10,342 nucleotides of DNA from a virus. Its lineage: Duplodnaviria; Heunggongvirae; Uroviricota; Caudoviricetes. The notes under the pieces were generated by a model that saw only the letters and a program-made list of their open reading frames with translations, was not told the DNA's origin and did not search any database. The first letter of the stretch is position 1, and the number at the start of each line of letters is the position of its first letter. Position numbers and translations under genes: made by a program. The DNA is taken from the IMG/VR virus record IMGVR_UViG_2526164650_000011. The stretch is one strand, 5' to 3'. Of the stretch, positions 8,675-10,342 are shown piece after piece.

Positions 8675-8916
8675 TACTACGTCATCGTACTGGCCCGGCA
8701 TTCCAGGCCATAAAAGACAGTCTGGCAGTGGGACTAAATGCACTGACGCTGACGGATATTACCAAAAATGCAACGTATGGCGTTGAGATAGAAAGTCTGG
8801 TGCTGGAGATAAATGCACCGGCATCATCATAAAAAGTGAGCCAGTCAAATGGAAGGTATCGTTAAACTCACCGGTAGTGTCAGTGGGTCGTCTGAGACGC
8901 TTGCATGAGTTATCAG

Positions 8917-8948
8917 AGCCATCAGTAGTTAACTGGTGGCTTTTTTAT
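8917..8948 (+). terminator. Intrinsic terminator immediately upstream of the holin gene
   Basis: 9-bp stem AGCCATCAG / CTGGTGGCT (one G-U pair), 7-nt loop, then TTTTTTATT. Confidence 0.55.
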
Positions 8949-8981
8949 TGTTGTCAGCTTCCGGATAACGGGAGACGGGGT

Positions 8982-9142
8982 ATGGACCAGATGGAAAAAA
9001 TCACAACAGGTGTGTCATACACCACGTCAGCGGTGGGAACGGGCTACTGGTTCCTGCAGTTGCTGGACAGGGTTTCCCCGTCTCAGTGGGCGGCAATAGG
9101 CGTGCTGGGGAGTCTGCTGTTTGGGCTGCTGACATATCTGAC
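8982..9142 (+). pseudogene. essQ: S21-type class II holin (pinholin) with dual start (Met1/Met4), truncated after codon 54 by IS600 insertion
   Basis: [54 protein letters not shown] resembles phage 21 S as recalled. The frame then continues into IS600 terminal sequence (EVYWQ, stop at 9161); the native charged C-terminal tail is missing. Confidence 0.8.
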
Positions 9143-9185
9143 TGAGGTGTACTGGCAATAGCGGACACTACCATTTGTTCTTTTT

Positions 9186-10004
9186 TTAAGCAGTCATCTG
9201 ATGATATTTTTCCCTGAAGGCTGCCGGGGAGATATTCCCCAGACGAGAGTGACGACGCTGACGATTGTAGAAAATCTCAATGTATTCCCGTATTACTGAG
9301 ATGGCTTCATCCCGGTTATTAAAACGATAGTGGCTCAGGCTCTCATTTTTCAGCGTTCCCCAGAAGCTTTCCATCGGAGCGTTGTCGTAACAGTTACCTT
9401 TACGCGACATTGATGTTTTCAGACCAGACTGCTCCTGTATGACCCGGTAATCGTATGCGCAGTACTGTGAACCTCGATCAGAGTGGTGGATTAGCCCGGC
9501 AGGTGGGCGCTGGCTCCTGAGCGCCATAAACAGGGCTTTACCTGTCAGCTCTTTTGTCATGCGCTCTCCCATGGCGTAGCCGACAATTTCACACGTATAA
9601 ACATCTTTGATGCCAGCGAGGTACAACCATCCCTCCTGTGTGGCAACATACGTCAGGTCCGCCACCCAGACCTGATTTGGTGCTGTAGGAGCGAACGTCT
9701 GGTTCAGCAGATTTGGCGCAACTGGCAGATTGTGGTTCGGGTTCGTAGTCGCTCTGAACTTGCGTTTCTGCTTACAGCGCAGCCTCAGCTCCTTACGAAG
9801 ACGTGCCAGTCGGTCACGACCAACGATGATGCCATTCTCTGCCAGCTCCGTCTGGAGCCGCCGGGTTCCATATGTTTCGCGAGTGCGGATATGTGCCACC
9901 TTAATCTCCGGTTTTAGCCGCTCATCACTTTGTTTTCTGTCTGAGGGTTCATGCTGTACCCAGTTGTAATAACCGCTCCTGGATACACCAAATACCTGAC
10001 ACAT
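9186..10004 (-). CDS. IS3-family transposase OrfB (IS600-like), copy 2
   Basis: 272-aa ORF nearly identical to 372-1190 (differences seen: L31P, and C-terminal MTA versus MAA). Confidence 0.85.
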   Translation of the reverse strand: MCQVFGVSRSGYYNWVQHEPSDRKQSDERLKPEIKVAHIRTRETYGTRRLQTELAENGIIVGRDRLARLRKELRLRCKQKRKFRATTNPNHNLPVAPNLLNQTFAPTAPNQVWVADLTYVATQEGWLYLAGIKDVYTCEIVGYAMGERMTKELTGKALFMALRSQRPPAGLIHHSDRGSQYCAYDYRVIQEQSGLKTSMSRKGNCYDNAPMESFWGTLKNESLSHYRFNNRDEAISVIREYIEIFYNRQRRHSRLGNISPAAFREKYHQMTA

Positions 10005-10039
10005 CGCTTCAATGGGAAATTGTTGTCGCCATTGTTCGA

Positions 10040-10342
10040 TTAACGCGTATTTTTCAGCGACTCCTGTGCAAAATACGCTGTTGCTTTTTTTAATATATCT
10101 CGCTCAAGGCGAGCTTCATTTAACGCCTTACGCAGTTGCAGAATTTCAGATTCCAGTTCAGCCAGCGTGCGGGAACCAGGAGTACCGAGCCCTTTTCTGG
10201 CGGCGGTAACCCATTGTCCTAAAGTGCCTTCAGGAAGAGATAATCGGGAAGCGCCTTCACTGATCGAAAGTTGATTTTCAAGAACCGTTCTGACAGCTTC
10301 GGCTTTGAACTCTTTAGAGTAACGTTGGGTTTTTCTGCTCAT
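10040..10342 (-). CDS. IS3-family transposase OrfA (IS600-like, 100 aa)
   Basis: MSRKTQRYSKEFKAEAVRTVLENQLSISEGASRLSLPEGTLGQWV...LERDILKKATAYFAQESLKNTR, a helix-turn-helix plus leucine-zipper OrfA. Matches IS600 OrfA as recalled. Confidence 0.85.
   Translation of the reverse strand: MSRKTQRYSKEFKAEAVRTVLENQLSISEGASRLSLPEGTLGQWVTAARKGLGTPGSRTLAELESEILQLRKALNEARLERDILKKATAYFAQESLKNTR

Follow-up and report, generated by a model that had tools for sequence, protein, structure and literature searches.

The Qin prophage of Escherichia coli K-12, whose gene order we take to be ydfV-relBE-hokD-rem-ydfU-...-quuQ-...-essQ-ydfR-rrrQ-rzpQ ... ydfJ', carries in essQ a holin gene of the phage 21 S family, to which the S genes of the Stx phages and the E. 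coli allele WP_000372595.1 are also related. In Stx phages, the slot next to the Q/tRNA region holds the stx genes. An intact and phage 21-like locus is found in E. coli YJ3, where the holin gene is followed by a YdfR-family gene, by the gene for the lysozyme RrrQ, with a SAR-like N-terminus rich in Ala and Gly, and by that for an Rz-type 'lysis protein'. Insertion sequences of the IS3 family are expected to leave a 3-bp target-site duplication on simple insertion.

The phage 21 holin S21-68 provides the functional reference for this family, the pinholins, which have a SAR-like TMD1 and a TMD2 and whose small heptameric pores collapse the proton-motive force. Its C-terminus is dispensable for pore assembly only down to K56, the residue at which the truncation series stopped, and the FuN-screen indicates that K56 anchors the helix at the cytoplasmic face of the membrane; only Arg can replace it, His and Glu strongly reducing and hydrophobic residues nearly abolishing function (bioRxiv 10.1101/2021.04.20.440580). 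What defines the antiholin form, S21-71, is a single additional positive charge at its N-terminus (PMC9636201). The expansion of IS elements, pseudogenisation and IS-mediated rearrangement are the documented norm in the evolution of Shigella genomes (PMC7373316, PMC8072062).

The DNA analysed in the present study (hereafter referred to as the window) is a stretch of 10,342 nucleotides from the IMG/VR virus record IMGVR_UViG_2526164650_000011, and it holds a cryptic, Qin-like prophage remnant of 8-9 kb with IS elements on both sides. At the right edge of this remnant lies a 59-aa holin ORF that runs into a copy of IS600. With a probability of roughly 0.88, this ORF is an essQ-like holin pseudogene of the phage 21 S family, left by a lambdoid cryptic prophage of the Qin type in Shigella flexneri, and the DNA on its 3' side was lost by an IS600-associated deletion; the ORF most likely has no lysis function and would represent neutral debris fixed in a clonal lineage. 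The comparison draws on ten near-identical loci from complete genomes, retrieved through the exact 59-aa sequence and taken with 10-kb flanks (20-kb loci), and on an eleventh related locus (L013) obtained from a junction scan of species-representative genomes. The coordinates of the features are collected in Table 1.

Table 1. Features of the prophage remnant and of the adjoining IS elements in the window.
Feature	Position	Strand	Remarks
IS1 end	1-309		C-terminus of InsB at 1-294, with the terminal repeat reaching about 309; adjoins internal IS600 sequence (IS-in-IS truncation)
Second IS600 copy	310-1233	+	Inverted relative to the right-hand copy; 5' end cut by IS1; orfB-proximal end truncates ydfV; left boundary of the remnant
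ydfV-like ORF, truncated by IS600	1187-1492	-	
relB, then relE split by an IS3-family element	1829-3077 (element)		
IS3-family element in relE	orfA 1865-2203; orfB 2230-3069		
hokD, rem, DUF968 gene, rusA			In this order after relE; followed by the Q gene
Q-type antiterminator gene, intact	5771-6592	+	273 aa; same late operon as the holin
Promoter-like site	6598-6625		3' of the Q gene and 5' of the tRNA genes; from a scan
Terminator-like hairpin	6673-6692		3' of the Q gene and 5' of the tRNA genes; from a scan
Prophage tRNA genes	6737-6812; 6903-6979	+	Downstream of Q
STnc100 sRNA (Rfam)	7676-7865	+	Full-length match, 124 bits (gathering score 47)
IraM/PmrD-like gene	7891-8226	-	
DUF1737 gene			After the IraM-like gene and before the hairpin at 8915-8943
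Terminator-like hairpin with T-run	8915-8943	+	12-pair stem, from a consensus scan; just 5' of the holin start; putative terminator
Ribosome-binding GGGAG	8970-8974	+	7-nt spacing to the holin ATG; read directly
Truncated holin ORF	8982-9161	+	59 aa; ATG 8982-8984, TAG 9159-9161
Native 5' part of the class II (phage 21 S-type) holin gene	8982-9143	+	Codons 1-54, MDQMEK...LTYLT
IS600-encoded tail	9144-9161	+	GAG GTG TAC TGG CAA (EVYWQ) + TAG
IS600 (IS3 family), right-hand copy	9143-10342	-	orfB + orfA; runs off the window end and continues for about 64 bp, judged from L009
IS600 orfB	9186-10004	-	272 aa
IS600 orfA	10040-10342	-	100 aa; window ends exactly at the orfA start codon

The greater part of the ORF is native holin sequence. 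At codons 1-54 (162 nt) its DNA is 100% identical to that of the intact 71-aa allele WP_000372595.1, present in E. coli YJ3 and many other strains and described in RefSeq as a 'class II holin family protein' of E. coli prophages; with 162 nucleotides identical to a known gene, a chance match is of no concern. Many E. coli strains carry chromosomal prophage DNA that is likewise 100% identical to positions 8680-9142 of the window. In the pairwise alignment the identity to the YJ3 allele is perfect through base 9143 and the sequence beyond is unrelated. The holin codon ACT and the end of IS600 share the T at 9143, so that codon 54 (T) is the last native one and codons 55-59 derive from the IS element. 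From 9143 onward the DNA is the IS600 terminal repeat, which reads TGAGGTGTACTGGCAATAGCGGACACTACC... and is also present, reverse-complemented, at the close of the other IS600 copy at 1233. This repeat stays open in the holin frame for five codons before reaching TAG, and the EVYWQ-stop is thus supplied by the IS element, while the holin codons missing from the stump are the last 17 (residues 55-71 of the 71-aa form). The preliminary description had recognised an S21-family holin cut by IS600 after LTYLT, with an EVYWQ-stop contributed by the element; the alignment and the Pfam match given below confirm this observation at the same positions, while the interpretation attached to it is partly supported. 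Alternative ORFs over the same DNA were also considered and rejected. A GTG-started ORF of 94 aa (8877-9161) was set aside because RefSeq starts the intact homologue at the ATG of MDQMEK, with GGGAG lying 7 nt 5' of it, and two minus-strand ORFs overlapping the stump (9001-9174 and 9027-9158) were without support.

Membership of the family is evident from the match of the stump to the Pfam family PF04971 (Phage_holin_2_1, 'Bacteriophage P21 holin S'), with a score of 83.3 bits (curated cut-off 26; E = 1.2e-23); no NCBIfam model matches the stump or its full-length counterpart. Over residues 1-54 the stump is identical to the intact E. coli allele and shows 97-99% identity to the Stx-phage holins, and it shares with phage 21 S a weakly hydrophobic TMD1 and a Gly/Ser-rich TMD2 core. 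It differs from phage 21 S in lacking residues 55-71, including K56 (S21-68 numbering), in its foreign EVYWQ tail and in having no endolysin or spanin partner. PGAP and UniProt list the 59-aa form as an ordinary protein, as would be expected of a naturally short holin variant, yet the probability that it is one is next to nil, given that its last five codons and stop are the IS600 terminal repeat and that the family is consistently longer. The PF04971 profile, covered by the stump over positions 1-54 of 64, runs ten positions further and is matched by the intact allele over positions 1-63 at 112.5 bits; 424 of the 427 homologue records in the phage collection cover at least 80% of the 71-aa query; the complete phage records, among those listed, all span residues 1-71, down to 76% identity; and the full-length members of the 90% cluster have 71 aa, the shorter ones being flagged 'partial'. 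Intact S21-family holins ending naturally near the cut had been named beforehand as the finding that would speak against a truncation, and both Pfam and the phage records show that members of the family run on past this point.

The element that cuts the holin gene is a typical IS600. Besides orfA and orfB, the right-hand copy has a body that is 98.8-99.2% identical to RefSeq copies of the 'IS3-like element IS600 family transposase', and it is bounded by TG...CA terminal inverted repeats, which read TGAGGTGTACTGG... at 9143 and ...CCAGTACACCTCA at 1233 in the second copy. The far end, seen in the related locus L009 at 11425, reads ...GGCTACCTCA, and the full element occupies 10162-11425 (1264 bp) in that locus. 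In its two ORFs, its TG...CA ends and its level of identity, the copy resembles both IS600 and the IS-mediated deletions known in Shigella, and its setting, dense in IS1, IS600 and another IS3-family element, is like that generally described for Shigella (PMC7373316, PMC8072062). It is otherwise ordinary and differs from a simple IS600 insertion by the missing 3-bp duplication.

The two IS600 copies that bracket the remnant are inverted with respect to each other, and the same orfB-proximal end faces inward in each. In 5 of the 10 related genomes the whole intervening segment has the opposite orientation with respect to the chromosomal flanks (the ydfJ side and the ydeP/IS1 side), L002, L004, L005, L008 and L010 forming one orientation group and L003, L006, L007, L009 and L011 the other. 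The flipped segment is an inversion polymorphism arising by recombination between the IS600 copies.

The far side of IS600 was followed in the related genomes, the closest of which (L009, CP007037.1) is 99.97% identical to the window over 7265 bp. The holin-IS600 junction, ...catatctgac|TGAGGTG, is identical in all ten complete-genome loci and in L013. At the other end of the element L009 reads ...ctacctca|cccatcttgctgg, that is ...ggctacctca|cccatcttgctggtgacg, where the flank is the interior of ydfJ, and in the related loci the interior of ydfJ is followed by ydfI, ydfZ, rspR, ydfG and dcp. This flank matches the ydfJ-ydfI region of 5204 E. coli genomes; relative to E. coli 13C1079T, whose ydfJ is already truncated by the prophage, it begins 267 bp inside the gene. 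The bases adjoining the two IS600 ends in L009 are GAC and CCC, and hence there is no 3-bp target duplication. As the two flanks derive from different loci (essQ and ydfJ), its absence marks a deletion or recombination junction; it is compatible with such a junction and is no argument against the identity of the element as IS600. The 3' end of the holin gene, YdfR, RrrQ and Rz were not found by blastn or tblastn within 10 kb in the 11 related loci. The preliminary description had placed the endolysin and Rz genes beyond the IS element as displaced genes; in the near-identical genomes the interior of ydfJ is found there instead. The ydfJ flank, the missing duplication and the absence of lysis genes within 10 kb together indicate that the lysis genes were deleted and not displaced. 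The far junction lies 64 bp beyond the end of the window, whose own genome would be expected to share it with the near-identical genomes.

A simple insertion, in which IS600 splits an otherwise complete lysis cassette and leaves the 3' end of the holin, the endolysin and Rz intact beyond it, would predict a far flank of GAC followed by TAACCTGTATTTC..., and then ydfR, rrrQ and Rz. The window ends within IS600, so that its own far flank lies out of view, and IS600 is known to insert beside holin genes elsewhere, as in the STEC strain NIID080884. An arrangement of this kind is nevertheless most improbable, as the identical junction of the ten near-identical genomes and L013 is in no case accompanied by the lost genes, and as the far flank is ydfJ interior lacking a duplication. 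In addition, metagenome contigs gave no matches to the reciprocal junction, in which the far end of IS600 would be joined over 0-6 nt to the holin 3' end as the trace of an ancestral simple insertion. The preferred reading is the IS600-associated deletion. IS600 lies at codon 54/55, and the DNA formerly 3' of it would have been lost, namely the final 17 codons of the holin gene, ydfR, rrrQ for the SAR-type lysozyme, Rz, the rest of the right arm of the prophage and 267 bp more of ydfJ, which the prophage had already truncated. The loss may have occurred as a deletion adjacent to IS600 or through recombination between two copies of it in direct orientation.

Searches of E. coli for the same junction showed it to be absent from 5,426 complete genomes, whereas in Shigella assemblies it is widespread. 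The best 'two-piece' matches in this species (H1-H3) are unrelated IS600 copies near intact holins and were rejected as instances of the junction. In E. coli NIID080884 (L014, 2544-4205), an intact class II holin gene has an IS600 copy some 300 bp 5' of it, an independent event in a similar late-gene region.

The consequences of the cut for the protein were assessed by placing it on the numbering of S21-68, with the cytoplasmic end of TMD2 set from the FuN-screen placement of K56 at the membrane interface. As YWFLQW and the loop LDQVSPSQ fall at the S21-68 positions in the present allele, K56 corresponds to K59 of the 71-aa form, and the native sequence in the stump ends at T51. The cut takes out NLYFK, which comprises the last turn and cytoplasmic end of TMD2 together with the K56 anchor. 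The IS-encoded residues place Glu at N52 and Gln, the last residue, at position 56, and change the net charge after the cut from +3 to -1; no Lys or Arg is left after residue 30, so that the required positive C-terminus is missing. The preliminary description held that both transmembrane segments were kept and only the tail was lost, which underestimates the damage, since the NLYF end of TMD2 and K56 are gone as well. TMD1 is intact, the hydropathy maximum (residues 36-54) is kept, and the NLYF end of TMD2 is replaced by the IS-encoded EVYW. The hydropathy of the TMD2 core is essentially unchanged and V-Y-W resembles the native L-Y-F; insertion into the membrane therefore could still take place. 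With the end of TMD2 and K56 lost, a working tail-less pinholin is unlikely; extrapolation from the K56 data to a construct ending in T51 + EVYWQ suggests that stable pore formation by the stump is unlikely. The 59-aa product would keep TMD1 and most of TMD2 and would be devoid of the TMD2 cytoplasmic end, the Lys anchor and the basic tail, as well as of an endolysin or spanin partner.

The stump may be transcribed, as the upstream Q antiterminator gene is intact, and it could be supposed that the 59-aa protein is still made and active in the membrane, either as a weak depolarising toxin or as a dominant-negative partner that associates by its TMD2 with holins of Stx-type or lambdoid phages superinfecting the cell and disturbs their lysis timing. 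Still intact are TMD1, the core of TMD2 including its Gly/Ser-rich face, the Shine-Dalgarno sequence and the Q gene, the tail of S21-68 past K56 is dispensable for pore assembly, and the ORF is perfectly conserved in hundreds of assemblies. The cut lies, however, five residues inside the limit tolerated by S21-68, K56 is replaced by Gln and a Glu is added, perfect conservation is what a young clonal lineage would be expected to show and does not speak for selection, and the surrounding locus has been damaged by IS elements indiscriminately, relE, ydfV and ydfJ each having been struck; persisting membrane activity is accordingly considered improbable. A more specific form of this proposal, in which the Q-dependent late transcript still yields the anchor-less product, and this joins the near-identical holins of incoming phages (Stx-type or lambdoid) via TMD2 and acts as a dominant-negative 'antiholin' that perturbs the timing of lysis or as a weak membrane toxin, is highly speculative and must be regarded as quite improbable. 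A pseudogene that most likely has no lysis function is the reading preferred here.

A dual start had also been ascribed to the gene on the strength of the motif MDQMEK. Two in-frame ATGs are indeed present, at codons 1 and 4, in the stump as well as in the intact allele. However, the extension of the longer form is Met-Asp-Gln in place of the MKS of S21, has no Lys or Arg and adds a negative charge, so that the extra positive charge of the S21-71 antiholin is not there. The dual-start motif is thus present in form, and on its sequence it would be devoid of the feature that gives the arrangement its regulatory logic.

The rest of the remnant resembles Qin of E. coli K-12 in its gene order and in its chromosomal neighbourhood (ydfJ-ydfI-ydfZ-rspR-ydfG-dcp), as compared in the E. 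coli strains cited above. It differs from Qin in being cut at ydfV and essQ by the inverted IS600 copies and in having lost the DNA from essQ codon 55 to ydfJ. At the left edge, the ydfV-like ORF ends in IS600-derived codons that come from the same terminal repeat in another frame; with both the ydfV and the holin ORFs ending in IS codons, gene-IS chimeric ORFs are found at both edges of the remnant. The IS3-family element that splits relE, presumably IS911-like, is absent from all ten related complete-genome loci and therefore represents a strain- or sublineage-specific event. Its flanks overlap by 3 bp when compared with L009 (4097-4099), as expected for a simple insertion with target duplication.

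The homologue of the Q-type gene is annotated as an 'antitermination protein' in YJ3, and the Pfam family Antiterm is found in the related loci. The promoter-like site and the hairpin that follow Q resemble the pR'/tR' late-promoter arrangement. The tRNA with a CAT anticodon is assigned to Met by ARAGORN and its homologue in E. coli YJ3 is annotated as tRNA-Ile, and the other is a tRNA-Arg (TCT). The sRNA STnc100 lies between the Q/tRNA region and the IraM/PmrD-like gene, in the slot that is occupied by the stx genes in Stx phages. Genes for head, tail, lysis, integration and immunity are all missing from both the window and the 20-kb loci, and the element is consequently unable to make phage at all. 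The view that the insertion rendered a prophage lysis-defective therefore holds in that the element cannot lyse the cell, and fails in that it is a decayed remnant rather than an otherwise intact prophage.

The exact 59-aa sequence occurs in 1465 blocks of the public assembly collection, including hundreds of Shigella assemblies. The protein is already known, being listed in UniProt as Q7UCH5_SHIFL, 'Lysis protein S [Shigella flexneri]', and in RefSeq as 'MULTISPECIES: class II holin family protein [Shigella]', where PGAP treats it as a protein and not as a pseudogene. A literature search combining IS600, holin and Shigella flexneri found no paper. As the annotation pipelines present the 59-aa stump as a normal 'class II holin family protein' or 'Lysis protein S', a truncated-pseudogene flag is due. 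The stump would be of biological interest in its own right only if it interfered with the holins of superinfecting phages. It is an ordinary product of IS-mediated prophage decay that shows no departure from known behaviour, and the locus provides a clean textbook case of the dismantling of cryptic prophages by IS elements in Shigella, in which the holin-IS600 junction could serve as a marker of the lineage.
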